NCBI GenBank assembly: GCA_015487635.1
Contig: WFPM01000014.1
Coordinates: 407-64,406, forward strand
Direction: 5' to 3'
DNA from: Rhodothermus sp.
GTDB taxonomy: Bacteria; Bacteroidota; Rhodothermia; Rhodothermales; Rhodothermaceae
DNA: 64,000 bases
Shown here: positions 49,876 through 64,000 of the stretch, piece by piece
How the letters are laid out: every line of letters begins with the position of its first letter
Numbering within the stretch: the first letter of the stretch is position 1
The notes under the pieces: model-generated
Told to the model about the DNA's origin: nothing
The model's database searches: none
The model's input: only the letters and a program-made list of their open reading frames with translations
Made by a program: the position numbers and the translations under genes

Positions 49876-50772
49876 ATGAGCGAACACGAAACGCAACCCG
49901 TTCCCGAAACGGAAGCTTCGGCTTCCGAAGAGGCGACAGCCGAAGTGGCCGAAGCCACGACCGAAACGTCGGCCACTGAAGCCCAGCCCACCCATCGCGT
50001 CTCCATCGAGGAGTTGCTCAAAGCGGGCGCCCACTTCGGGCACCTGACCAGCCGGTGGAATCCCAAAATGCGCCCCTTCATCTTCATGGAGCGCAACGGG
50101 ATCCACATCATCGATCTGGTGCAGACGCAGCAGCTCCTCGATCGCGCGGCCGAAGCGGCCGCCCGCTTTGCCCGTCAGGGCAAGAAGATCCTGTTCGTCG
50201 GCACCAAGAAGCAGGCCCGCGACATCGTTCGCAAATACGCGGAAGCCTGCGGCCAGCCCTACGTCGTCGAACGCTGGCTGGGCGGCACGCTGACCAACTT
50301 CCAGACGATCCGCCAGAGCATCCGCCGCATGGAAGAGCTGGCCCGGATGGAAGAAGAAGGCATCCTGGACCAGCTCAAGAAAAAAGAACGGCTGATGAAG
50401 CGCCGCGAACGCGAAAAGCTGGAGCGGACGCTCGGCGGCATCGCCCAGATGGCCAAACTCCCGGGCGCGCTGTTCATCGTCGACGTGGTGCGTGAGCACA
50501 TCGCCGTCAGCGAAGCGCGCAAGCTCGGCATTCCCATCATCGCCATCGTCGATACGAACGCCGACCCGGAGCTGATCGACTACCCGATCCCGGCCAACGA
50601 CGACGCCGTACGCTCCATCGAATTGATCACCTCGGTGATCGCCAACGCGATCATCGAAGGCGCCAAGCAGCGCGAGCAGGAAGAAGCCTCGCGCAAAGCG
50701 GCGCGGGAAAAGCGCGCAGCCGAAGCCGAAGCCGCCAAAGAAGCACGCCGACGTCGCAAGAAAGGCTCCTGA
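49876..50772 (+). CDS. rpsB: 30S ribosomal protein S2 (with acidic N-terminal and basic C-terminal extensions)
   Basis: The core begins [15 protein letters not shown] at about residue 42. The conserved S2 body follows. Confidence 0.88.
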
Positions 50773-50805
50773 TTTCTCCCAGAACATAAACGACCGACAT
50801 AAACA

Positions 50806-51636
<831 letters not shown>

Positions 51637-51652
51637 CCCGCAAGACGCCACA

Positions 51653-51681
51653 AGCCCGAACCGCTGGGTTCGGGCTTTTTT
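51653..51681 (+). terminator. Rho-independent terminator after tsf
   Basis: AGCCCGAACC-GCT-GGTTCGGGCT stem-loop followed by TTTTTT. Confidence 0.7.
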
Positions 51682-51766
51682 GTAGCCGATCGGCTCCTGG
51701 CCCCGACTGGGGCGTTGAATCCCTGCCCGAAAGGGCCTACTTTTCGGAAGCAAGACCCTCCGAGTC

Positions 51767-52552
51767 ATGGCTGGCGAATCGGACACGTCGAACAACCGAC
51801 CGCGCCCCCGCTACCGCCGCATCCTGCTCAAACTGAGCGGCGAGGCCCTCATGGGCCAGAAGCCCTACGGCATCGACTGGCACGTACTGGAAACCTACGC
51901 CCGGGAAATCCGCCAGGTGGTCGAGCTGGGCGTGGCCGTGGGCATCGTCATCGGCGGCGGCAACATCTTTCGGGGCGTGCAGAACGCCTCGCGCGGCATG
52001 AAGCGGGCCCATGCCGACTACATGGGCATGCTGGCCACCATGATCAATGCGATGGCCCTGCAGGACGCGCTCGAACAGGCCGGGCTCGACACGCGCCTGC
52101 AGTCGAGCATCAAAATGGAACAGATTGCCGAGCCGTTCATCCGCCGCCGGGCCATTCGCCATCTGGAAAAAGGACGGGTGGTGATCTTCGGCGCCGGGAC
52201 GGGCAACCCGTACTTCACCACCGACACGGCCGCCGCGCTGCGCGCGCTGGAAATCGAGGCCGAGGTGCTGCTCAAGGGCACGCGCGTCGACGGCGTCTAT
52301 TCGGCCGATCCGGAGCGCGATCCCAACGCCCGGCTGTTTACCACCATCCACGGACGCGAAGTGATTCAGCGGGATCTGCGCGTGATGGACATGACCGCCT
52401 TCACGCTATGCCGGGAAGCCGGCCTGCCCATCATTGTGTTCAACATGAACAAACCCGGCAACCTGTTGCGCGTGGTCTGCGGCGAGCCGGTCGGGACGCT
52501 GGTCTACTGGACCGAAACGCCTCCGTCGTTTGCCGAAACCGCTCAGGCCTGA
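51767..52552 (+). CDS. pyrH: UMP kinase
   Basis: [10 protein letters not shown] and [21 protein letters not shown] motifs. Confidence 0.92.
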
Positions 52553-52576
52553 TCACGAACCCAACCCAACGGGACT

Positions 52577-53155
52577 ATGGTGGCCATACCGAACGAACAC
52601 CTGCAATTGATTCTGGACGACGCGCGCGAGCATATGGAAAAGTCGCTTGCGCACCTGCGCACCGAGCTGGCCACGCTCCGGGCCGGACGCGCCACGCCGG
52701 CCATGCTCGAAGACGTGCGCGTCGAATACTACGGCACGATGACGCCGCTCATGCAGTTGGCCAGCATCACGGCACCCCAGCCGGACCTGCTCATCGTACA
52801 ACCCTGGGACCGCTCGGCACTGGGTGCCATCGAACGGGCCATCATCAACGCCAACCTGGGACTCAATCCTTCCAACGACGGCAACCTCATCCGCATTCCG
52901 ATTCCGCCGCTTTCCGAAGAGCGACGCAAGGAACTGGTCCGCGCCGCCCGCATCCGGGCCGAAGAAGCCCGCGTGGCCATCCGCAACATCCGGCGGCACG
53001 CCAAAGACCACATCAAAAAAGCCAAGGAGGAAGAGCACCTGCCGGAAGATCTCTGCCACGCGGCCGAGGAAGAGCTGCAGAAGCTGACCGATACCTATAT
53101 CGAAAAGGTCAACCAGCTCCTGGAGCGCAAAGAGGCCGAAATCATGGAAGTCTGA
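52577..53155 (+). CDS. frr: Ribosome recycling factor
   Basis: 192 aa; LRAGRATPAMLE and IRNIRR motifs. Lies downstream of pyrH. Confidence 0.92.
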   Translation: MVAIPNEHLQLILDDAREHMEKSLAHLRTELATLRAGRATPAMLEDVRVEYYGTMTPLMQLASITAPQPDLLIVQPWDRSALGAIERAIINANLGLNPSNDGNLIRIPIPPLSEERRKELVRAARIRAEEARVAIRNIRRHAKDHIKKAKEEEHLPEDLCHAAEEELQKLTDTYIEKVNQLLERKEAEIMEV

Positions 53156-53206
53156 CGGGAGGCCCGGAACTCCCGGCCGACCGATGCCATAAAGTAAGGC
53201 GCTTGC

Positions 53207-53298
<92 letters not shown>

Positions 53299-53340
53299 GC
53301 CGGGTTGCCGTCAATCGAAGGGCAACCCGGCTTTTCGTTT
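53299..53340 (+). terminator. Terminator hairpin after tRNA-Ser
   Basis: GCCGGGTTGCC (53299-53309) / GGCAACCCGGC (53321-53331) followed by TTTT. Confidence 0.6.
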
Positions 53341-53363
53341 GGACCAACCCGACGTTGCGGCCC

Positions 53364-54242
53364 ATGATCGCCAGCATGACCGGCTTCGGGCGCGGCCAGG
53401 CCGAACGCGACGGTTTCACGGCCACCGTCGAGCTGCGCTCGGTCAACAACCGCTATCTGGACGTTTCGGTGCGGCTGCCCCGCATCGCGTCGCTCTACGA
53501 ACCGGACGTCCTGGCGGCCATCCGTCAGGCTTTCAGCCGCGGCCGCATCACCGCCCAGATTGACCTGAAGCTGCCGCCGGAAGCAGGGCTCCTGCCGCGC
53601 CTTAACCTCGACGTGGCCCGCCAGTACCTGACCCAGCTCGAAGCGCTGCGCGCGGAAACCGGCCTGTCCGACCCGATCCGGCTCGAGCACCTGCTGGCGC
53701 TGCCCGAGCTTTTCGAGCGTCCGGAAGTGCCCGAAGAAGACGAGCGCATCCGCCAGGTACTGATGGAGGCGCTCGCCCAGGCCATCAGGACGCTGCAGGC
53801 CACCCGCCGTCAGGAAGGGGCCCTGCTGCAGGCCGACCTAGAAGCCCGCCTGGAGGCCATCGCCCGCCGCGTCGAAGCCATCGAAGCCCGCGCGCCCGAA
53901 CGCCTCGTCGAAGCCCGGGAAAAACTGCGCGCCCGCGTGCAGGAACTGCTGCGGGACGAACAGATCGACCCCGACCGACTCGAGCTTGAAATTGTGCTAC
54001 TGGCCGATCGGCTCGACATCACCGAGGAGTGCGTCCGGCTGCGTGCCCACCTGCAGCACTTCCGCGAGGCGCTGCAGGCCGAGGAACCCAGCGGCCGCCG
54101 CTTGAACTTCCTGACCCAGGAGCTGCACCGCGAAGCCAACACGATCAACGCCAAGGCCAACGACGCCACGATCGCCCTGCTGGCCGTCGAAATCAAAGAA
54201 GAAGTCGAAAAAATCCGCGAGCAGATTCAGAACATCGAGTAG
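53364..54242 (+). CDS. yicC: YicC-family stress-induced protein
   Basis: The start was set at MIASMTGFGRGQ. VELRSVNNRYLD and the C-terminal EIKEEVEKIREQIQNIE are typical of YicC. Confidence 0.85.
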   Translation: MIASMTGFGRGQAERDGFTATVELRSVNNRYLDVSVRLPRIASLYEPDVLAAIRQAFSRGRITAQIDLKLPPEAGLLPRLNLDVARQYLTQLEALRAETGLSDPIRLEHLLALPELFERPEVPEEDERIRQVLMEALAQAIRTLQATRRQEGALLQADLEARLEAIARRVEAIEARAPERLVEAREKLRARVQELLRDEQIDPDRLELEIVLLADRLDITEECVRLRAHLQHFREALQAEEPSGRRLNFLTQELHREANTINAKANDATIALLAVEIKEEVEKIREQIQNIE

Positions 54243-54245
54243 CCC

Positions 54246-54815
54246 ATGCCGGAGCCCCGGATCGTCATTCTGACCGCACCCAGCGGGGCCGGAAAAACCA
54301 CGCTGGCCCGTCGCCTTCAGGAGGCGCTGCCCCGGCTCCGGTTTTCCGTATCGGCCACCACGCGCCCGCCTCGCCCCGGCGAGCGCCATGGCGTGGATTA
54401 CTATTTTCTAACTGAAGACGAATTCCGGCGACTGATCGAACAGGGCGAGCTGATCGAGTACGAAGAGGTCTATCCAGGCCGTTTCTACGGCACGCTGCGC
54501 CGGGAAATCGAACAGGCCAGCCGCGAACATCCCGTGCTGCTCGACATCGACGTTAAAGGCGCCCTGCGGGTCAAAGAATTGTTCGGCGACGACGCTTTTG
54601 CCCTCTTCGTCCGGCCGCCCTCACTGGAAGCGCTGGCCGAACGCCTGCGCAACCGGGGCACCGAAGACGAAACCACGCTGCGCCAGCGTCTGGAGCGCGC
54701 CCGAATGGAACTGGCCATGGCCGATCGTTTCGACGCCGTGGTGGTCAACGACGATCTGGAGCGGGCCGCGGCCGAAACCCTTCGTCTGGTGCGCTCGTTT
54801 CTGGAGCGGCCTTAA
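54246..54815 (+). CDS. gmk: Guanylate kinase
   Basis: P-loop APSGAGKTT and the SATTRPPRPGE motif. Confidence 0.92.
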   Translation: MPEPRIVILTAPSGAGKTTLARRLQEALPRLRFSVSATTRPPRPGERHGVDYYFLTEDEFRRLIEQGELIEYEEVYPGRFYGTLRREIEQASREHPVLLDIDVKGALRVKELFGDDAFALFVRPPSLEALAERLRNRGTEDETTLRQRLERARMELAMADRFDAVVVNDDLERAAAETLRLVRSFLERP

Positions 54816-54827
54816 CCTCCGATCCCC

Positions 54828-56054
54828 ATGGCCGCACAACCGCTCGCCGCGCTCGAAGGCCGCCATCTGTTGCTGGGCGTCACCGGGAGCATTGCCGCCT
54901 ACAAGGCGGCCGAGCTGGTCCGGCTGTTCAAAAAAGCCGGCGCCGAGGTGCAGGTCATCATGACGCCCGACGCCACGCGCTTCATCACGCCGCTGACACT
55001 CGGCACGCTTTCCGAGCGCGAGGTGCTCGTCGATCTCTTTCCGGAGAACGAACCCGGCTCCTGGACGAAGCACGTCCATCTCGGACGCTGGGCCGATCTG
55101 GCCGTCGTGGCGCCCGCCACAGCTCAGACGCTGGCCCGTCTGGCGCATGGCTTTTGCGACACAATGCTGGCCGCTACGCTTCTTTCGGCCCGCTGCCCGG
55201 TGCTGCTCTGCCCGGCCATGGACCACGACATGTACCACCATCCGGCCACGCAGCGAAATCTGGAGCTGTTGCGCCGGTACGGCTACGAGATCCTGCCACC
55301 GGAGTTCGGCGAGCTGGCCAGCGGGCTCGTGGGCGACGGCCGCCTACCCGATCCGGAGCGCATCGCGGCGCAGGTGGCCGCCCTGCTCGCACGACGGCAT
55401 TCCCTGGCCGGCAAGCACGTGCTGGTGACGGCCGGCCCCACCCGGGAGATGATCGATCCGGTGCGCTGCCTGACGAACCCTTCCACCGGCACCATGGGCT
55501 TTGCGCTGGCCCGCGCGGCCTCCCGACGCGGCGCTCGCGTGACGCTCATCACCGGTCCCACGCTGCTGCCCACCCCGCCCGGCGTCACCCGCATCGACGT
55601 CACCTCGGCCCGTGAGATGTACGAGGCCGTGCTCCGGCATGCCGACACGGCCGACTTTGTCTTCATGGCGGCCGCCGTGGCCGACTACGCGCCCGTCGAA
55701 ACCGCACCCTCCAAGCTCAAAAAAGAAGCGGACGAACTGGTGCTCCGCCTGCGCCGCACCCCCGACATTCTGGCCGAACTGGGCCGTCGCCGCCGATCGG
55801 ATCAGGTGCTCGTGGGTTTTGCCATGGAAACCGACAATGCGCTTGAAAACGCCCGCGATAAGCTACGCCGCAAGAACCTCGACTGGATCGCACTCAACCG
55901 CCTGAACGAACCGGGCGCCGGCTTCGGCACCGGCACCAACCGTCTGACGCTGCTGCACCGGAGCGGCCACCTCGAAGAACTGCCCCTCCTTCCCAAAGAC
56001 GAAGCGGCCGAAGCACTGCTCGACCGCGTGCTGGCGTCTCTTGAGAACGCCTGA
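54828..56054 (+). CDS. coaBC: Bifunctional phosphopantothenoylcysteine decarboxylase / phosphopantothenate-cysteine ligase
   Basis: 408 aa. N-terminal flavoprotein LLGVTGSIAAYKA. The C-terminal CoaB region has VTAGPTRE and the AAVADY motif. Confidence 0.9.
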   Translation: MAAQPLAALEGRHLLLGVTGSIAAYKAAELVRLFKKAGAEVQVIMTPDATRFITPLTLGTLSEREVLVDLFPENEPGSWTKHVHLGRWADLAVVAPATAQTLARLAHGFCDTMLAATLLSARCPVLLCPAMDHDMYHHPATQRNLELLRRYGYEILPPEFGELASGLVGDGRLPDPERIAAQVAALLARRHSLAGKHVLVTAGPTREMIDPVRCLTNPSTGTMGFALARAASRRGARVTLITGPTLLPTPPGVTRIDVTSAREMYEAVLRHADTADFVFMAAAVADYAPVETAPSKLKKEADELVLRLRRTPDILAELGRRRRSDQVLVGFAMETDNALENARDKLRRKNLDWIALNRLNEPGAGFGTGTNRLTLLHRSGHLEELPLLPKDEAAEALLDRVLASLENA

Positions 56055-56191
56055 TATGAGATTTTAGTGCAGTTGCAGGAGCGTCCTGAAGGCGGAAAGC
56101 CACGACCTCTGCTCCGCCGGCTGGTGGGAGTGGACGGCGCTGAAATTGGCAAACGTGTTTGAATGCAGCGGCTCCCGCGCCATTGTGTTCG

Positions 56192-56236
56192 GCTCCCCCT
56201 TGAGGGGGAGCTGTCGCGAAGCGGCTGAAGGGGTGA
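56192..56236. repeat. Hairpin repeat element, copy B
   Basis: GCTCCCCCT-TG-AGGGGGAGC followed by TGTCGCGAAGCGGCTGAAGGGGTGA. It matches the reverse complement of 35642-35687. Confidence 0.7.
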
Positions 56237-56328
56237 TCATTGTTCAATCGCCGATGAGATTTTCGCTTGTCTCTCGCGCCAAAAGCCTGTAGCTTTGGGG
56301 AAGTGTCGTCAACGTCCCGGGAGGGCCC

Positions 56329-57120
56329 ATGCAGGAGCTGCTACACGCCGTCCGTGACGCCCTGCTGCAGGAGTACGTCCTGCTGGGCCCGCTGGGCTTC
56401 TGGAAAAACCCGGTCACCATGTCCACCCCAGAACACGCCCCGAGCAACCAGGACCTGTTCGGCCAGCCACAACCACCGCCGGAATCGGCCTCGGCGGATC
56501 CCTATGCCCGCATCGAGGCGCAGATTCCGCCCGACTCGCCGCTGCGAGCCATGCGCACGCTGGACGAAGTGGCCCGCTACGTGGCCGAAACGGTCCTGAT
56601 CCCGATCGACGCCCGACGCACGAACCCGGTCTTCGGCGTCGGTAACCCCGAGGCGGATCTCATGGTGATCGGCGAGGCGCCCGGGGCCGAAGAAGATCGC
56701 CAGGGCGAGCCGTTCGTGGGTCCGGCCGGCCAGTTGCTCAACAAAATGCTCAAAGCCATCGGCTTCGAGCGCGAAGAAGTCTACATCACGAACGTGCTGA
56801 AAAGCCGCCCGCCCCACAACCGGGATCCCCAGCCGGATGAAATCGAAGCGCACCTGCCCATTCTGTACAAACAGATCGCGCTCGTGAAGCCCCGGATCAT
56901 CCTGTGCGTGGGGCGCATTGCCGGCAACGCGTTGCTGGGCCGGAACGATTCGCTGCGTGCCCTTCGGGGCAAGGTGCACGACTTTCATGGGCTGCCGGTG
57001 GTCGTTACCTTCCACCCGGCCGCCCTGCTGCGCAATCCCCAGTGGAAGCGGCTGGCCTGGGAAGATCTCCAGCTACTGCGCGCCCACTACGACCGCCTGA
57101 TGGGCACGGCAACGCGCTGA
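56329..57120 (+). CDS. udg: Family 4 uracil-DNA glycosylase (start uncertain)
   Basis: [27 protein letters not shown] and the HPAALLRNP motif. The N-terminal ~80 aa is an unconserved extension, so the true start may lie downstream. Confidence 0.8.
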
Positions 57121-57136
57121 AACCTGCAGGAAAACC

Positions 57137-58690
57137 ATGGCCGAGTTTGAGGAACGTCCCCGGTTGAGCATTGGCGAAGAGGAAGCGCCACCCTACCCGC
57201 TGGAAAAACTGACCGGCGGGCGCCGGCGCTCGCGTGCCCAGATTCATGCGCTACACCAGCAGGCCGGGCGCGTGCCACCTCAGGCCGTCGAGCTGGAACA
57301 GGCCGTGCTCGGCGCCATGCTCATCGAGCCGGAGGCGATCCCCCGGGCGCTGGAGATTCTGACGCCCGAGTCGTTCTATGACGGCCGCCACCAGCGCATC
57401 TTTCGAGCCATTATCCGGCTGTTCGAACAGAACCGCGGCGTCGACCTGCTGACGGTCACCGAAGAGCTGCGTCGCACGGGCGAGCTGGAGCAGGCCGGCG
57501 ACACCGTCTACCTGAGCGAGCTGACTACGCGGGTGGCCTCGGCGGCCAACGTCGAATACCACGCCCGAATCATCGCCGAGAAGGCGCTGCTGCGCCGTAT
57601 GATCGAGGTGATGACGCTGCTCATCGGTCGCGCCTACGATCCGGCCGCCGACGCCTTCGAGCTGCTCGACGAGGTGGAGGCCGAGATCTTCCGGCTGTCA
57701 GACGTGCACCTGCGCAAGGCCGCCCGCTCCATGAATGAAATCGTCAAAGAGACGCTGGAGCGGCTGGAAGCCATCCACGGCCGGCCGGGCGGCATCACGG
57801 GCGTGCCCAGCGGCTTTCACCAGCTCGATGCGCTCACGGGCGGCTGGCAACGAGGCGACCTGGTGATCATCGCTGCCCGTCCGTCCATGGGCAAGACGGC
57901 TTTTGCGCTGAGCTGTGCCCGCAACGCGGCCCTGCATCCGCACTACGGTACGGGCGTGGCCATCTTCTCGCTGGAGATGGGCGCCGAGCAACTGGCCCAG
58001 CGCCTGCTGACGGCCGAAGCCCGCGTCGATGCCCAGGCGGCCCGCACCGGACGACTGCGCGACGAGGACTGGCGCAAGCTGGCCCGTGCGGCCGGCCGCC
58101 TTTCGGATGCCCCGATCTTTATCGACGACACCCCTTCGCTCAGCGTGCTCGAACTCCGCGCCAAATGCCGCCGCCTGAAGGCCGAGCACGACATCGGGCT
58201 GGTGATCGTCGACTACTTGCAGCTCATGCAGGCCTCCCACATGCCCCGCAACGCCAACCGCGAGCAGGAAATCGCCCAGATCTCCCGCTCGCTCAAAGCA
58301 CTGGCCAAGGAGCTGAACGTGCCCGTTGTGGCCCTCTCCCAGCTCAGCCGCGCCGTCGAAACCCGCGGCGGCGACAAACGCCCCCAGCTCTCCGATCTAC
58401 GCGAAAGCGGCAGCATCGAGCAAGACGCCGACGTCGTGCTGTTTATCTATCGACCCGAGCGCTACGGGATTACGGTGGATGAAAACGGTAACTCCACCGA
58501 GGGTATCGCCGAGATCATTATCGGCAAGCAGCGCAACGGCCCGACCGGCACCGTGCGCCTGGCCTTCATCAACCAGTACGCCCGTTTCGAGAACCTGACG
58601 ATGTACCAACCGGAGCCGGAGGCTCCCCTCCCTGAGACGCCGGATGAGACCATCCTGCCTTCCGGGCCTCCCGACGAAGCGCCTTTCTGA
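57137..58690 (+). CDS. dnaB: Replicative DNA helicase DnaB
   Basis: PPQAVELEQAVLGAML in the N-domain. Walker A ARPSMGKTAFAL. IVDYLQLM and SQLSRAVE motifs. No intein-sized insertion. Confidence 0.92.
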   Translation: MAEFEERPRLSIGEEEAPPYPLEKLTGGRRRSRAQIHALHQQAGRVPPQAVELEQAVLGAMLIEPEAIPRALEILTPESFYDGRHQRIFRAIIRLFEQNRGVDLLTVTEELRRTGELEQAGDTVYLSELTTRVASAANVEYHARIIAEKALLRRMIEVMTLLIGRAYDPAADAFELLDEVEAEIFRLSDVHLRKAARSMNEIVKETLERLEAIHGRPGGITGVPSGFHQLDALTGGWQRGDLVIIAARPSMGKTAFALSCARNAALHPHYGTGVAIFSLEMGAEQLAQRLLTAEARVDAQAARTGRLRDEDWRKLARAAGRLSDAPIFIDDTPSLSVLELRAKCRRLKAEHDIGLVIVDYLQLMQASHMPRNANREQEIAQISRSLKALAKELNVPVVALSQLSRAVETRGGDKRPQLSDLRESGSIEQDADVVLFIYRPERYGITVDENGNSTEGIAEIIIGKQRNGPTGTVRLAFINQYARFENLTMYQPEPEAPLPETPDETILPSGPPDEAPF

Positions 58691-58731
58691 ATGGAAAAAA
58701 GCCCCGGCGCCTTGCGCACCAGGGCTCTCGG

Positions 58732-58802
58732 AGGTGACGGGCGGATTCGAACCGCCGTACGGGGCTTTGCAGGCCCCTGCCTAACCACTCGGCCACGTCA
58801 CC
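58732..58802 (-). tRNA. tRNA-Cys (anticodon GCA)
   Basis: The reverse complement folds as acceptor GGTGACG/CGTCACC, anticodon stem GGGGC/GCCCC with loop CTGCAAA, T-arm GGCGG-TTCGAAT-CCGCC and discriminator T. The CCA is not fully encoded. Confidence 0.88.
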
Positions 58803-58997
58803 CTCTCCGCGTGGTCTTACGACCAAAGGAAGCCGCCGGATCCATCGGGCGCACGGCTAACGAGCTTTTCGTCGGCGGGTTCCATACATAGACAACGAGC
58901 TTGATAACCAGCATTGAATCTCTGTCAGGAAATCCTTTGCGCCTGCACTGGACTTTAACGCCTTATATTTCAAGAGGCAATCAACACCCTGTTTCCC

Positions 58998-60311
58998 ATG
59001 TGGCCCCTGCTGCTGTGGCTGATGCTGCTGCCGATGCCGGCTCAGACGCCCACGCCGGTGGTTTACCGACTGGCGCTGGAGGACGAGCCGATCACGCCGG
59101 CGACCGTTCGGTTCATCCGGCGCGGGTTACGCGAGGCCACGGAAAACGGGGCGGTCTGCCTCGTCATCGAAATGGACACGCCGGGCGGGCTCGTCGAGGC
59201 CACGCGTGACATTGTGCAACTTTTCCTGCGGAGTCCGATCCCGGTCGTCGTCTACGTGACGCCGCCGGGCGCGCGGGCGGCCTCGGCCGGGGTGTTCATC
59301 ACGCTGGCCGCACACGTGGCGGCCATGGCCCCGGGCACGCACATTGGCGCAGCCCACCCTGTGCAGCTCGGAGGGGGCCCGACGGCACCGCCCGACACGG
59401 CCCGCGTCGATCCCATGTCGGAGAAGATCCTGAACGATGCAGTGGCCTGGGCGCGGGCGCTGGCCCAGTACCGGGGACGCAACGCCGACTGGGCGGCACG
59501 GGCCGTGTCGGAAAGCCAGACGCTGACGGCGCAGGAGGCCGTGGCACAGCACGTCGTCGATCTGCTGGCGCCCTCGCTGGACTCGCTGCTGGTGCTGCTG
59601 GACGGCCGGAAGGTGGCGCCCGACGGCCAGACCGTGACGCTGCAGACGGCCGGGGCCACCGTGCGCACGATCGAGCGCTGGTGGGGCGAGCGCATCCTGG
59701 CAGCGCTCTCCAACCCGAACATCGCCTTCCTGCTGCTGATGCTGGGCTTCTACGGGCTGCTGTTCGAGCTCTACACGCCTGGCTGGGGCATTCCCGGCAC
59801 GCTGGGCGCTATCTTTTTGATGCTGGGCTTCTACGGCCTTTCCATCCTGCCGGTCAACTACGTCGGGCTGGCCCTGCTGGCGCTGGGCCTGGGCATGCTC
59901 GTGGCCGAAGCCTTTGTGCCCAGTTTCGGCCTGCTGACCGTAGGGGGCGTCGTGTGCCTGATTTTGGGCGGGTTGATGCTTGTGGAAAGTCCGATGGGCT
60001 TTCCGAAGGTTTCGGCTGCCCTGGTGGTGCCGGTCGCACTGGCCACGGCACTGATCGCGTTGTTTCTGCTGGGCAACATGCTGCGCATACAACGCCGGCC
60101 AGCCCGCATGGGCGATGCAACGCTGATCGGCCAGCAGGCCGTGGCGCGCGAAGACTTCACGTCGGAAGGCGACCACTTTCAAGGGTATGTTTTTATCCAT
60201 GGCGAGTGGTGGCGGGCCTGCAGTGCGGTGCCGGTGCGGGCCGGCCAGCCCGTCCGCATCGAGCGCCGGGAAGGCCTCTGTCTCTGGGTTTCACCGATTG
60301 CGTCCACCTGA
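58998..60311 (+). CDS. nfeD: NfeD-family membrane-bound ClpP-class serine protease
   Basis: 437 aa. A signal is followed by a ClpP-like domain (ASAGVFITLAAHVAAMAPGTHIGAAHPV), multiple TM helices and a C-terminal OB-like NfeD domain. It lies upstream of a stomatin gene. Confidence 0.85.
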   Translation: MWPLLLWLMLLPMPAQTPTPVVYRLALEDEPITPATVRFIRRGLREATENGAVCLVIEMDTPGGLVEATRDIVQLFLRSPIPVVVYVTPPGARAASAGVFITLAAHVAAMAPGTHIGAAHPVQLGGGPTAPPDTARVDPMSEKILNDAVAWARALAQYRGRNADWAARAVSESQTLTAQEAVAQHVVDLLAPSLDSLLVLLDGRKVAPDGQTVTLQTAGATVRTIERWWGERILAALSNPNIAFLLLMLGFYGLLFELYTPGWGIPGTLGAIFLMLGFYGLSILPVNYVGLALLALGLGMLVAEAFVPSFGLLTVGGVVCLILGGLMLVESPMGFPKVSAALVVPVALATALIALFLLGNMLRIQRRPARMGDATLIGQQAVAREDFTSEGDHFQGYVFIHGEWWRACSAVPVRAGQPVRIERREGLCLWVSPIAST

Positions 60312-60335
60312 AAACCAACCAGCGGAGGTGCGGCC

Positions 60336-61100
60336 ATGCTTTCGTCGACAGGCATCGTCATCGGGCTGATTGTGCTGTATTTCATCAGCTGCATTCGCAT
60401 TCTGTACGAGTATCAGCGCGGGGTCATCTTCCGCATGGGCCGGGTCCTCCCCGAGCCGAAGGGCCCGGGCATCGTGCTGGTGTTCTGGCCGATCGATCGT
60501 ATGGTGCGCGTCAGTCTGCGCACGTTCGTACACGACGTGCCCGAGCAGGACGTGATCACGCGCGACAACGTGTCGGTACGCGTGAACGCCGTCGTCTACT
60601 TTCGCGTGATCGACCCCATGAGGGCCGTGCTGGAGGTGGAAGATTACCGCTATGCCACCACCCAACTCTCGCAGACTTCACTGCGCAGCATCGTGGGCCA
60701 AGTAGAACTGGACGAGCTGCTGGCCGAGCGCGAAAAGATCAATCGCCGGTTGCAGGAAGTTATCGACCAGCAGTCGGATCCCTGGGGCATCAAGGTGTCG
60801 CTGGTGGAAGTCAAGCACGTGGACCTGCCTGAGCACATGAAGCGGGCCATGGCCAAGCAGGCCGAAAGCGAGCGGGAACGTCGGGCCAAGGTGATTCACG
60901 CGCAGGGCGAATTGCAGGCGGCCGAGCAACTGGCCCAGGCAGCCGCCATGCTTGAGGCGCACCCCATGGCCATGCAGATGCGCTTTCTGCAGACGCTGGT
61001 AGAAGTGGGCTCGGAGAACAACACGACGATCGTCTTCCCGATCCCGCTGGAGCTGATTCGCCCGCTACTGGAGCCGGAACAACGACGTAAACAGAGCTGA
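60336..61100 (+). CDS. SPFH/band-7 (stomatin-like) protein
   Basis: 254 aa. An N-terminal TM helix is followed by [11 protein letters not shown]...[17 protein letters not shown] and a coiled-coil with [15 protein letters not shown]. Confidence 0.88.
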
Positions 61101-61267
61101 ACACAAAAAAGTCCGGACCGATGCCGGGCCGGCGCCGCTCGTGTGAGGCTTTGCGAACCTTCAAGGACGAACTGGAGATAGAAGTGATAAGGGGCAAGGG
61201 GCACCCTCAAGAAATTAAAGTCGTTGCCTCGTGAGATTATTCTTTTGAAGATAAACCTCCTCTGAGC

Positions 61268-61333
61268 TTGACTTTTAATGTATTTCTGTGTATTATATTG
61301 TATAATATTGGACACACGAAGGAGGCAATATAG
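61268..61333 (+). promoter_or_regulatory. Near-consensus sigma70 promoter and strong Shine-Dalgarno for the nuclease-fusion gene
   Basis: TTGACT (61268-61273), a 17-nt spacer, then TATTAT (61291-61296). A second TATAAT lies at 61301-61306. GAAGGAGG at 61319-61326 ends 7 nt before the ATG at 61334. Confidence 0.6.
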
Positions 61334-62845
61334 ATGAGTGGTCGTAAATGGAAATTAAACCAAGAAGAGGAAGAGAAGATAAAAGAATATTTGTTGCACC
61401 AAGGAGGAGAAGAAAAGGAAGCAAAAAATATCTCCGAAAAATGGAGAATAAAGTTTTCCGATAGCACATTTACTTTTTATACAAGCGGTACCCTTTACAG
61501 TACTCCATCAAATTCTCAAGATCCGGCTGTGGAAGAGGTATGGGATTATATTGACTCTCTGGTTGGTTCTGTCTTTGTTCAGCCTACAAGAGAATTTTTA
61601 ATAGGATTAGATGAGACTGGAAAAGGTGAACTTGTTGGACACACTCATCTTGTGGGTGTAATTATTCCCAGCCATCTTTTTTCACAGTTAGAGAAGATAG
61701 TTTCTACGGCAGATACAAAGAAAGCACACTCTTTTGAGTATTGGGATAATATTTTCAAAAAAATTTCGCAATTCATCGGCGACGGTTTAGAGTACATAGA
61801 AGAAAAAATACCCCCTTGGCATGTGGACAGGTACAACCTTAATAAAATCATGGATGTTGTTTATCAGCGTATCTTGGCTTCATTTTTCAGAAGAGCTGGT
61901 GTTGGAAAGTGCAGAATAGTGATTGATGATTACGGCATAGGACCTACCCTTAAGCGCTTCCTTAACTTTTTAGAAAGACAGAGAGCTGAAGTTGTTATCG
62001 CCCAAAAATCAGATGATACATATTTAGAAGCAAGAGTCGCTTCTATAATTGCGAAGAGAAACAGAGAAGCGGTAATAAAAGCTATAAATGAAAACGAGGA
62101 TTACAAAATAGATGGAATTTCGATAGGTTCTGGAAATGCAGGGAATAAACAAACCTTAGAATGGCTTGAAAAATGGCATAGTTCAGGGAAAGAATGGCCA
62201 TGGTTTATAAAACGGTCTTTCTCAACAATTAGAAAAATTGAGAGACTCAGGGGGAAAGCGAAAAAAATTATTCCTCCAATTAGAGATAATCTTCTGTCAG
62301 AAGACTTTAAAAGAGAGTTAGATTTAGGAAAGTTGAATATAAGAGCTCTATCAGTAGTTTGTCCTTCATGTGGGACAACCTCTAAAGCAGTTCTTTTCAC
62401 ATCTGGAGAAAGGGGATTTACAGCGAGATGCCCGAGTTGCAGAAAACCTATTGAAGATTTGAATTTCACTTTGAGGTACTATTGTGGCTTTATTGTGCCA
62501 GACAGCAATGTGATTAATAGAGGCTTGCTGGGAAGGGATTTAGAAAAAAGTAAATTCTTTGAAGATTTTACCATTCTAATCCCTGCTGTTGTTAGATATG
62601 AATGTGACACCAAAGGTGGTAAAAAGGAGTTTGAAAGACTGGGAAGGTTTGCATCCATTAGCAGAATTAAACTTAAAGAAGTTGAAGAGTTTAATCCTTC
62701 TAAATTTCAAGAAATGACTTCGCAAGAGCGAGATGAGTTAATTATGAAGACATGTATTGAAGAAAATGCCGTCCTTCTTTCGGCTGACAATCAGGTTAAA
62801 GGGGTTGCTGTGGCAAAAAATATTTTTACTATTTTTGTACCATAG
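61334..62845 (+). CDS. Multidomain nuclease: RNase HIII-type N-terminal domain + type 2 RNase H (RNase HII-like) core + CxxC...CxxC zinc ribbon + PIN domain. I do not recognise this architecture.
   Basis: 503 aa.
- aa 37-60: WRIKFSDSTFTFYTSGTLYSTP resembles the RNase HIII N-domain (...TxYxSGKvlfQG).
- aa 90-300: IGLDETGKG, ADTKK, IVIDDYG, KSDDTYLEARVASIIAKRNRE and IGSGNAGNKQTLEWLEKW align motif-for-motif with archaeal-type RNase HII (DEAGRG, DSKK, DAxD, KADxxxxxVSAASIxAKxxRD, GSGYPSDxxTxxFL).
- aa 343-369: CPSC-x21-CPSC.
- aa 385-503: IVPDSNVI, RYECD, ERDELI and LLSADNQVKGVA fit the four acidic positions of a PIN domain. Confidence 0.8.
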   Translation: MSGRKWKLNQEEEEKIKEYLLHQGGEEKEAKNISEKWRIKFSDSTFTFYTSGTLYSTPSNSQDPAVEEVWDYIDSLVGSVFVQPTREFLIGLDETGKGELVGHTHLVGVIIPSHLFSQLEKIVSTADTKKAHSFEYWDNIFKKISQFIGDGLEYIEEKIPPWHVDRYNLNKIMDVVYQRILASFFRRAGVGKCRIVIDDYGIGPTLKRFLNFLERQRAEVVIAQKSDDTYLEARVASIIAKRNREAVIKAINENEDYKIDGISIGSGNAGNKQTLEWLEKWHSSGKEWPWFIKRSFSTIRKIERLRGKAKKIIPPIRDNLLSEDFKRELDLGKLNIRALSVVCPSCGTTSKAVLFTSGERGFTARCPSCRKPIEDLNFTLRYYCGFIVPDSNVINRGLLGRDLEKSKFFEDFTILIPAVVRYECDTKGGKKEFERLGRFASISRIKLKEVEEFNPSKFQEMTSQERDELIMKTCIEENAVLLSADNQVKGVAVAKNIFTIFVP

Positions 62846-62874
62846 CTAACATAAGATGGTGAGAAAAAAAGAAA

Positions 62875-63912
62875 ATGGAGGAATTTAGAAAATGTGGACT
62901 TTACATAAGGGTTTCCACTGAAAGGCAAGCTGTAGAAGGGGAATCCCTTGACGAGGAGGAAGAAAGGCTAAGGAGGTTTTGCAGGGTTAGAAACTGGAGG
63001 GTAATAAAAGTCTATAGAGAGGAAGGAAAATCCGCTAAGGATACAAACAGACCAGCATTTAAGGAGCTTTTAAGGGGTGTAGAAAATGGCTTAATAGACA
63101 CTCTCGTTGTTAAAAAGCTTGATAGACTCTCCCGCTCAATCGTTGACTTTGAGAAGATTTACAACTTCCTGCAAAACCATCATGTTGATCTTGTTTCTCT
63201 GCACGAAAACTTTGATACCACGACTGCTATCGGCAGAGCTGTAGTCAGGATAGTTATGGTGTTCGCTCAGCTTGAAAGGGAGCAGACGGCGGAGAGAACC
63301 CTTGATGTGATGGAGCACAGGGCAAGGGAAGGTTTGTGGAACGGTGGCTACCCTCCGTTAGGCTACGATTTAAAAGATGGAAAACTGATTGTTAACCCAG
63401 AAGAGGCCAGAGTCGTTAAACTTATTTTTGAGAAATACCTCGAGTTTGCCTCATATACCAGAGTTGCCAAGTGGTTGAATGAACACGGTTACAAAACAAA
63501 AGAGTTTATCAGCCGTAGAGGTAAAAAGCAGGGTGGAAGCGATTTTACTGATACCTATATAGCAAGAGTCTTAAAACATCCGGTTTACATAGGCAAAATC
63601 AAGTACAAGGGGAAGTTATACGAGGGACAGCATACCCCGATAATTGACGAAGAAACCTTCAACTTGGTTCAGGAAATCATCAAATGTAATTACAAAAGAA
63701 CCAGTAGCGTCAAAAGGCAAATTAAACACAACTTCTTGCTTGAGGGACTTTTAAAGTGTGGTGTTTGTGGTGCTTTTATGACGCCGACATGGGCCAAATC
63801 GAAGGGGAGAAGGTATTTCTATTACGAGTGCACTACCAATCAGCACAAAGGAAGGGGAACCTGTGAAGGCGGAAGCGTCAGAGCTGACCTTATAGAAAAT
63901 TTAGTTTGGTGA
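62875..63912 (+). CDS. Large serine recombinase, apparently C-terminally truncated
   Basis: Resolvase catalytic domain (YIRVSTERQ, DTLVVKKLDRLSRS). Recombinase domain (GGYPPLGYDL...EEARVVKLIFEKY). Zinc-ribbon motif (CGVCG...YYEC...C). The ORF stops at 345 aa, right after the zinc ribbon, so it has no coiled-coil/C-terminal region. Confidence 0.82.
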   Translation: MEEFRKCGLYIRVSTERQAVEGESLDEEEERLRRFCRVRNWRVIKVYREEGKSAKDTNRPAFKELLRGVENGLIDTLVVKKLDRLSRSIVDFEKIYNFLQNHHVDLVSLHENFDTTTAIGRAVVRIVMVFAQLEREQTAERTLDVMEHRAREGLWNGGYPPLGYDLKDGKLIVNPEEARVVKLIFEKYLEFASYTRVAKWLNEHGYKTKEFISRRGKKQGGSDFTDTYIARVLKHPVYIGKIKYKGKLYEGQHTPIIDEETFNLVQEIIKCNYKRTSSVKRQIKHNFLLEGLLKCGVCGAFMTPTWAKSKGRRYFYYECTTNQHKGRGTCEGGSVRADLIENLVW

Positions 63913-63916
63913 TTGC

Positions 63917-64000
63917 TCAATTCATTCCACCTTTTAGCACTTCCAGCAGTTTCTCAAACAAATCCTCCTTCCGATGATTGTACCGAAACTCCAGCTCCTT
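63917..64000 (-). mobile_element. 3' end of an IS1595-family (ISXO2-like) transposase gene, partial at the window edge
   Basis: The minus-strand translation reads KELEFRYNHRKEDLFEKLLEVLKGGMN-stop. The E-x-RYN-x-R...L...LL tail is recalled from IS1595-type DDE transposases. Only 27 codons are visible. Confidence 0.4.

Follow-up and report, generated by a model that had tools for sequence, protein, structure and literature searches.

We analysed a 64,000-nucleotide (nt) stretch of contig WFPM01000014.1 (GenBank assembly GCA_015487635.1) from Rhodothermus sp., hereafter the window, at whose right end the GC-rich host DNA gives way to a low-GC segment with a predicted nuclease gene and a gene for a large serine recombinase (LSR). 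Ahead of the segment, the host gene order is dnaB, tRNA-Cys, nfeD and stomatin, the stop codon of the last being located at 61098-61100. The features of the locus are listed below; attL, attB, attP and attR denote recombination sites, IS stands for insertion sequence, aa for amino acids, and the L numbers are loci with which the window was compared.

60336-61100, plus strand: stomatin/SPFH gene, the last host gene before the insertion (Band_7, 1.1e-33; protein 95% identical to that of the L011 gene).
61101-61134, no strand: host B arm of attL, i.e. the spacer between the stomatin gene and the former tRNA-Arg gene, including a hairpin; aligns with L011 10763-10806, directly 3' of tRNA-Arg.
61135-61136, no strand: crossover (core) dinucleotide CC of attL, from a four-way comparison of attL, attB, attP-like and attR sites.
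61136-61234, plus strand: detached LSR 3' tail, the P' arm of attP, with 32 codons (RSCEALRTFKDELEIEVIRGKGHPQEIKVVAS) and a stop, from translation; 92% identical to L010 133-263.
61235-61267, plus strand: short spacer after the tail, conserved with L010 to 61261 (blastn) and, by eye, with L098, at the same position before the -35 box.
61268-61296, plus strand: strong sigma-70-like promoter (TTGACT, 17 nt, TATTAT) of the cargo gene, at the left edge of the cargo cassette, the best promoter match of the region (10/12).
61334-62845, plus strand: cargo gene for a predicted nuclease of 503 aa (RNase_HII, 6.9e-16; weak PIN match).
62875-63912, plus strand: LSR gene, cut by an IS in the zinc-ribbon domain, N-terminal 344 codons (Pfam; 94.9% nucleotide identity to the LSR gene of Thermodesulfatator autotrophicus over 62887-63907).
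63908-64000, minus strand: IS end with a transposase C-terminus ...KELEFRYNHRKEDLFEKLLEVLKGGMN, read from 64000 to 63920, and its stop codon at 63919-63917, from translation.

In 1-kb windows, the G+C fraction (GC) is 0.57-0.70 over positions 1-61000 and 0.415, 0.369, and 0.425 in the last three windows, while in 200-nt windows it drops from 0.575 at 61000-61199 to 0.35 at 61200-61399 and then varies between 0.34 and 0.50 to the window end. For 1-61136 the GC is 0.646 versus 0.392 for 61137-63912, which is below all 117 host windows of equal length (minimum 0.589). The tetranucleotide L1 distance between segment and host is 0.909, compared with 0.187 ± 0.023 (maximum 0.286) for these host windows, placing the segment about 30 standard deviations (SD) away from them. 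Also, the GC of third codon positions (GC3) is 0.833 in four host genes and 0.362 in two segment genes, AGA and AGG together account for 1 of 123 arginine codons in the former and for 56 of 63 in the latter, and lysine is encoded in the segment genes by 53 AAA and 22 AAG codons. An initial annotation, made by eye, had described the abrupt low-GC switch after the stomatin gene and the flip of arginine codons to AGA/AGG, and had proposed tests of GC windows, tetranucleotides and codon usage; all of these deviate strongly from the host, and even the hand counts of G+C given there (19 of 60 at 61334-61393 and 35 of 60 at 60961-61020) proved exact. The break itself is real, but its position, set at about 61150, had to be moved to 61135-61136. 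The GC profile masks this true boundary because the foreign DNA begins with ~70 nt that are themselves moderately rich in G+C.

The boundary is defined by comparison with L011, a metagenome-assembled genome (MAG) of Rhodothermus sp. that encodes the best match of the stomatin protein among GTDB species genomes (95% identity). L011 is collinear with 50489-61136 of the window at 81-83% nucleotide identity, has tRNA-Ser and tRNA-Cys genes at matching positions and is host-like in composition throughout; the homology stops at 61136. Exactly at this breakpoint L011 carries two minus-strand genes, for tRNA-Arg(tct) and tRNA-Pro(tgg), thereby providing the empty site for which a comparison with related genomes had been suggested. 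Neither of the two genes is present in the window, whose only tRNA genes are tRNA-Ser and tRNA-Cys, the latter located at 58730-58802 and thus, as annotated before, away from the left junction. Rfam searches of the segment and of the whole window returned nothing besides these two tRNAs.

For the joint, the attL of the window was compared with attB of L011, with attP-like sites of L010 (reverse complement), L094 and L098, and with attR sites of L010, L092, L093, L096 and L097. The attP-like site reads ...cttcaaatggct CC gctcgtgtgaggctttgcgaacc, the attR site ...cttcaaatggct CC ccgggcaggactcgaacctgcaacc, the attB site ...accgggcccgcg CC ccgggcagggctcgaacctgcaacc, and the attL of the window ...gccgggccggcg CC gctcgtgtgaggctttgcgaacc. 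The window follows the host sequence as far as the position preceding CC and the attP sequence from the position following it, with about 4 nt of the tRNA remaining left of the core. On this comparative basis, the left junction is a site-specific recombination joint with the exchange confined to the 2-bp core CC, and its form, host sequence up to CC and element sequence after it, is as expected of a serine recombinase with a 2-bp crossover. Neither an att-like direct repeat nor a tRNA had been noticed at the left junction in the initial annotation. As an observation this stands, since no direct repeat of 12 nt or longer was found between the junction and the rest of the segment, but its implication was misleading: a serine recombinase leaves no long repeat because its exchange is limited to the 2-bp core.

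Directly after the core, the segment starts with the 3' end of an LSR gene. Positions 61131-61261 of the window are 92% identical to the reverse complement of L010 133-263, where the tail stretch ends an open reading frame (ORF) that repeats the last 111 LSR codons and then continues with ...EENFKWL-RSCEALRTFTDELKIEVIRSKGHPQEIKVVAS to a stop codon. The LSR of L010 that adjoins the tRNA ends with ...EENFKWL-PGQDLNLQPSG and a stop, a peptide obtained by translating the acceptor stem and T arm of tRNA-Asn in reverse complement. Unsplit LSR 3' ends with the tail were found in L010, L091, L094, L095 and L098, and integrated LSRs reading into tRNA-Asn in L010, L092, L093 and L097. Judged from their translations, the unsplit copies, reading ...FKWL/RSCEAL...VVAS and a stop across the core (slash), place attP inside the LSR ORF. 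In the window, the detached tail has the LSR gene's own orientation, which fits a circle opened within this gene.

The serine recombinase and the IS fragment recognised earlier in the segment were both recovered. The LSR contains PF00239 Resolvase (1.2e-39, residues 9-154), PF07508 Recombinase (7.8e-21) and PF13408 Zn_ribbon_recom (5.6e-16). R12, V13 and S14, including the serine nucleophile, are invariant across 26 aligned LSR sequences, in which W516 and L517 are near-invariant. Full-length relatives comprise 526-548 aa, and the ORF in the window stops after 345 codons at a stop codon arising at the IS junction. The homology of the LSR gene to L010 ends at 63907 and transposase sequence, a C-terminus on the minus strand (63920-64000), follows from about 63908; thus, the LSR gene is interrupted by the IS.

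The cluster of LSRs at 90% identity includes WP_408033337.1 of Thermodesulfatator autotrophicus. In the isolate of this species (LSFI01000032.1, here L092), the LSR and cargo genes, separated by a GmrSD restriction gene, show 94.9% and 88.6% nucleotide identity to their counterparts in the window, and the LSR ORF ends inside tRNA-Asn(gtt). Both the two-gene module (at 88.5% identity) and the tRNA-Asn junction recur in the MAG contig L010 (GC 0.367). In tetranucleotide composition, the segment is closer to the T. autotrophicus chromosome (distance 0.287) than to the host (0.909). The Rhodothermus and Thermodesulfatator lineages belong to different phyla. Based on these sequence relationships, the segment comes from a low-GC thermophile related to Thermodesulfatator (Thermodesulfobacteriota) and is a genuine cross-phylum acquisition. 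The recent horizontal acquisition of an integrated element proposed initially is borne out by the exact joint, the empty site in L011 and the 89-95% nucleotide identity to Thermodesulfatator.

The interpretation that we regard as probable is that the segment represents the left ~2.8 kb of an LSR-driven integrative element of ~3.3 kb (without the IS), which originated from a Thermodesulfatator-like bacterium and integrated into the 3' end of a Rhodothermus tRNA-Arg gene. Without the IS, the element would consist of the tail, the promoter, the nuclease cargo and the LSR gene. In its free, presumably circular form, the LSR gene would run across attP: CC would lie just past the conserved W-L codons, the TGG of which would correspond to the reverse complement of the tRNA CCA end, and 32 more codons would follow. 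A circle joined at CC would read ...TGGCTCCGCTCG.... Recombination with attB in the tRNA acceptor stem would leave these 32 codons stranded at the left end (61136-61234) and fuse the remaining LSR gene to the tRNA at the right end. In this genome, the displaced tRNA-Arg would be expected there, beyond the window, with the right junction reading ...GAAAACTTCAAATGGCTCC / CCGGGCAGGGCTCGAACCTGCAACC..., followed by tRNA-Pro and a LolE-like gene as in L011. A later IS insertion split the LSR gene; the element, with its LSR inactivated by the IS, is now probably fixed and immobile.

The choice of the site would be explained by a resemblance between tRNA genes. When the B' half-site of tRNA-Asn in T. 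autotrophicus is aligned with that of tRNA-Arg in Rhodothermus, 27 of 30 positions match, including 24 of the first 25. In T. autotrophicus, tRNA-Asn combines U1-A72 and G73 with a CCA that is encoded in the gene, and the ...GGAGCCA of the element restores this tRNA exactly, while the tRNA-Arg of L011 has G1-C72 and G73, with CCA not encoded. In its usual host, the element would supply ...A72-G73-CCA and thereby restore tRNA-Asn without change, and the Rhodothermus tRNA-Arg would have been used as a look-alike of the tRNA-Asn site. The tRNA-Arg product in this genome is predicted to have a G1.A72 mismatch. As a side observation, tRNA-Arg(TCT) reads AGA, the commonest arginine codon of the element genes. 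Beside the old tRNA site, the hairpin GTCCGG-ACCGATG-CCGGGC (61111-61129) is perfect in L011 but imperfect (G.T / C.A) in the window. Read on the minus strand, it would have terminated the tRNA-Pro/tRNA-Arg unit, which is now expected to run on into the element in antisense to the LSR gene.

The right boundary lies outside the window, as had been stated in the initial annotation. Two other assemblies contain the locus, GCA_027071935.1 (an NCBI MAG) and a Logan contig of SRR10312503, whose break points inside the IS are 63934 and 63989. Since all three contigs break in the IS, it is probably multicopy in this genome or community. The missing right boundary leaves room for the segment being the edge of a much larger island, such as a prophage, an integrative and conjugative element or a tandem array, with its far end many kb away; relatives contain extra cargo (GmrSD in L092, type III restriction-modification (R-M) genes in L098, a methylase gene in L097), and the Thermodesulfatator loci look nested. 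However, the extra cargo of the relatives is located between tail and LSR gene and not past the latter, nothing separates the LSR 3' end from the tRNA in any integrated relative whose DNA was examined, and with an LSR gene starting at 62875 only ~0.5 kb and the IS should remain. We consider a larger island unlikely.

The presence of the IS at 63908-64000 could also point to an IS-mediated (composite transposon) or an illegitimate insertion, in which the serine recombinase would only have been carried along. This is very unlikely, since the left boundary shows no IS end or IS copy and instead coincides with the exact LSR core, the IS terminus occurs once in the window, and the IS interrupts the LSR ORF and therefore arrived later. 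The 27-aa transposase stub (93 nt of the IS are in the window) had no Pfam or NCBIfam match; the only database hint, a weak tblastn match (E = 7) under an annotated IS1595-family transposase, tentatively assigns the IS to IS1595.

An assembly chimera, in which a Rhodothermus contig was misjoined to DNA of a co-occurring low-GC thermophile, had been named as the alternative to horizontal acquisition, and with a metagenomic source and contigs ending in a repeat, the IS, it deserved attention. Nevertheless, the two parental sequences share just the 2-bp core CC at the joint, far less than the k-mer length of any assembler, the joint coincides with a recombinase crossover site and with a tRNA 3' end in the syntenic relative, and it is reproduced at 100% identity in GCA_027071935.1 and in the Logan contig of SRR10312503. 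We therefore abandoned this alternative, to which we assign a probability lower again than that of an IS-mediated insertion. That the segment is a vertically inherited host region of atypical composition is barely conceivable and was rejected, as only its presence in three contigs speaks for it, and it is absent from the syntenic L011, differs in GC3 (0.36 vs 0.83), lies ~30 SD off the host windows in tetranucleotide distance and has 89-95% nucleotide identity to Thermodesulfatator.

Several points weigh against integration of an LSR element into tRNA-Arg as set out above. The right junction between the LSR 3' end and tRNA-Arg was not recovered in this genome, all three contigs stopping in the IS; a search for it with the C-terminal 184 aa of the LSR yielded fragments of other hosts only, and an exact search with the 345-aa LSR, the cluster of which includes a 164-kb contig, yielded nothing. 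No contig was found to contain, in direct orientation, the attL (tail) together with the attR (tRNA) of one and the same element. L011 is the sole empty-site comparator, at ~82% identity, and the stomatin loci of other Rhodothermales have neither this tRNA pair nor any other tRNA nearby. The dyad symmetry of attP is not significant, as 9.5% of shuffled sequences score as high (both attP and attB were tested). The three assemblies that contain the joint may derive from one sample; a literature search for the sample accessions returned nothing. Finally, the integration model does not account for an inverted partial copy of the LSR gene in the Thermodesulfatator loci (334 nt, 92-96% identical to the gene's own 3' end).

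This inverted copy was observed at L010 133-591, L092 1-46, L094 3090-3518 and L098 3176-3604, where it runs into the intact tail, so that an attP-like site faces attR; an LSR-mediated inversion is one possibility for its origin. In L097 (2502-2600), the tail, in reverse complement, stops exactly at the core GG and is joined to an interior stretch of the LSR gene, with AGCGG shared at the join, which looks like a recombination with a pseudo-site inside the recombinase gene.

The C-terminal ends were evaluated for the 120 closest LSR homologues. In 42 of them W-L is followed by a tRNA-like peptide at the end (PGQDSNLQPSG, PSADSNHGQGG and similar ones with ...DSN...), and eight have long tails that share the ...G-K-G/...GK... 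motif with the tail of the window. Another 16 stop 1-20 aa past a C-terminal W-x-x motif, nine of these within 3 aa, and lack the tRNA-like pattern; the shortest ends among them may be contig edges. For homologues beyond the loci checked at the DNA level, we infer a tRNA origin of the peptide endings because DSN corresponds to the GGTTCGAATCC T loop. Close relatives of the LSR (83-90% identical in the C-terminal part) have at least four different tRNA-derived endings. In unsplit form, the window's own tail was found in P0260, P0261 and P0266 and homologous tails in P0196, P0256 and P0259, the tail motif being kept in relatives whose LSRs are 45-66% identical. It is an evenly balanced question for us whether the LSR of the window belongs to a large clade that targets tRNA 3' ends with an attP in its own ORF, so that integration would swap the last ~32 residues for a tRNA-encoded peptide, and that moves small defence cargoes among thermophiles of hydrothermal vents, here across phyla. 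In such a clade, the tail swap might serve as a switch that stabilises the integrated state.

A plasmid search revealed no close LSR (the nearest being ~31% identical) and no cargo homologue, the LSRs on viral contigs of IMG/VR were all distant (31-37% identical) and lacked a tRNA at their 3' ends, and a scan of JGI metagenomes for elements with both ends gave 11 loci, none of them complete. Separately, many LSR copies share a frameshift after ...LEREQTAE (L010 2631-2643; P0242-P0246), with 151-aa products on at least 15 contigs, and the copies of the window and of T. autotrophicus are in frame. The frameshifted copies may represent a pseudogene lineage or a programmed frameshift.

The cargo cassette starts with the promoter, and the homology to L009, L010 and L092 begins exactly at its first position, 61268. 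The 503-aa cargo protein is composed of an RNase HIII-like N-terminal domain, a type 2 RNase H catalytic domain, a zinc ribbon with four cysteines and a PIN domain. Its AlphaFold2 (AF2) model has a confidence score (pLDDT) of 91.5, and the top Foldseek matches of this model are RNase H3 bound to an RNA/DNA hybrid (4py5; E 1.8e-13), archaeal RNase HII and the PIN domains 3i8o/5f4h. Invariant residues are D93, E94 and D198 of the RNase H domain, C343, C346, C366 and C369 of the zinc ribbon, and D390, E423, D467 and D485 of the PIN domain. Hundreds of homologues with 50-95% identity (54-95% for P0001-P0120) occur in thermophilic Bacteria and Archaea, mostly on short contigs, and elsewhere the gene stands beside DUF499/DUF1156 and helicase-nuclease genes. 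From this neighbourhood alone a defence or toxin role of the nuclease is plausible; in PADLOC the protein matched no defence family, with only a weak mad3 match (E = 0.004, 14.7 bits).

In related elements, the tail is followed by a promoter and a gene for a 64-66-aa HTH_17 (Xis/AlpA-like) protein and then by variable cargo; the element in the window is without HTH_17 and has the 503-aa protein as its sole cargo. The cargo between tail and LSR gene comprises different defence genes, namely GmrSD in L092 (1718-3394), type III R-M mod and res genes in L098 (3914-8612), and an N6-methylase gene in L097 (289-2148), and, in L094 and L095, genes for unknown proteins. The point at which cargo is swapped in these elements appears to lie directly after the shared -35 box (TTGACT).

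The locus provides a base-pair-level account of gene transfer between phyla at hot vents, from Thermodesulfobacteriota to Rhodothermota, and suggests that tRNA genes are landing sites also usable by a serine recombinase, a niche generally credited to tyrosine integrases. Because the 3' ends of tRNAs are conserved from phylum to phylum, a thermostable LSR that recognises such an attB could find use as a tool for integration in a broad range of hosts, and the att site in the recombinase gene suggests an enzyme change built into integration. The conserved cargo with its two nuclease domains is a candidate for a defence or toxin activity not characterised so far. With regard to known proteins, it shares the N-terminal substrate-binding domain and the type 2 RNase H fold with its D-E-D catalytic residues with RNase HIII and archaeal RNase HII; unlike these, it adds a four-cysteine zinc ribbon and a catalytically complete PIN domain and occurs in defence-like neighbourhoods of both Bacteria and Archaea.

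With LSR integrases of the phiC31, Bxb1, A118, CcrB and XisF type, the recombinase has in common the order of Resolvase, Recombinase and zinc-ribbon domains, the crossover at a 2-bp core and the lack of long terminal direct repeats. Its best NCBIfam matches are CcrB (6.4e-57) and XisF (4e-48), both far below the cut-offs. Unlike LSR integrases as known (Hudson et al.), it targets the 3' end of a tRNA gene, and its type of attP is located within the recombinase ORF. To our knowledge, and with incomplete coverage of the literature, no paper describes a serine recombinase that both targets a tRNA gene and has attP within its own ORF.

Islands in tRNA genes (Islander/TIGER) and tycheposons are likewise cargo elements at tRNA 3' ends; they supply a replacement 3' end of the tRNA, as the element here would do, and an LSR was reported in 27 of 937 tycheposon-like elements (bioRxiv 10.1101/2020.12.28.424599). 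Compared with them, the element in the window is without a repeat of a displaced tDNA fragment and without replication genes, is small (~3.3 kb) and resides in thermophilic vent bacteria. The Islander signature needs an integrase of the tyrosine family, whereas the only recombinase of the segment is of the serine type.

Integrase genes that extend across attP are described, in passages of PMC8371274 and PMC4383910 (the latter citing Tojo 1996), for the SSV-type 'suicidal' archaeal tyrosine integrases and for the tyrosine integrase IntP of myxophage Mx8; in the cited review, self-disrupting integrases are deemed exclusively archaeal. Common to these systems and the one proposed here are a recombination site within the integrase ORF, an integration that alters or splits the gene, and a tRNA gene as target. 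SSV-type integrases and Mx8 IntP are tyrosine recombinases, whereas the enzyme of the window is a bacterial serine recombinase with serine recombinase domains only. It would exchange its last 32 codons for ~11 tRNA-encoded residues, which is closer to the conversion of Mx8 IntP to IntX than to the split of the SSV1 gene. If this holds true, the clade would be the bacterial serine-recombinase counterpart of Mx8 IntP/IntX or of the archaeal 'suicidal' integrases.

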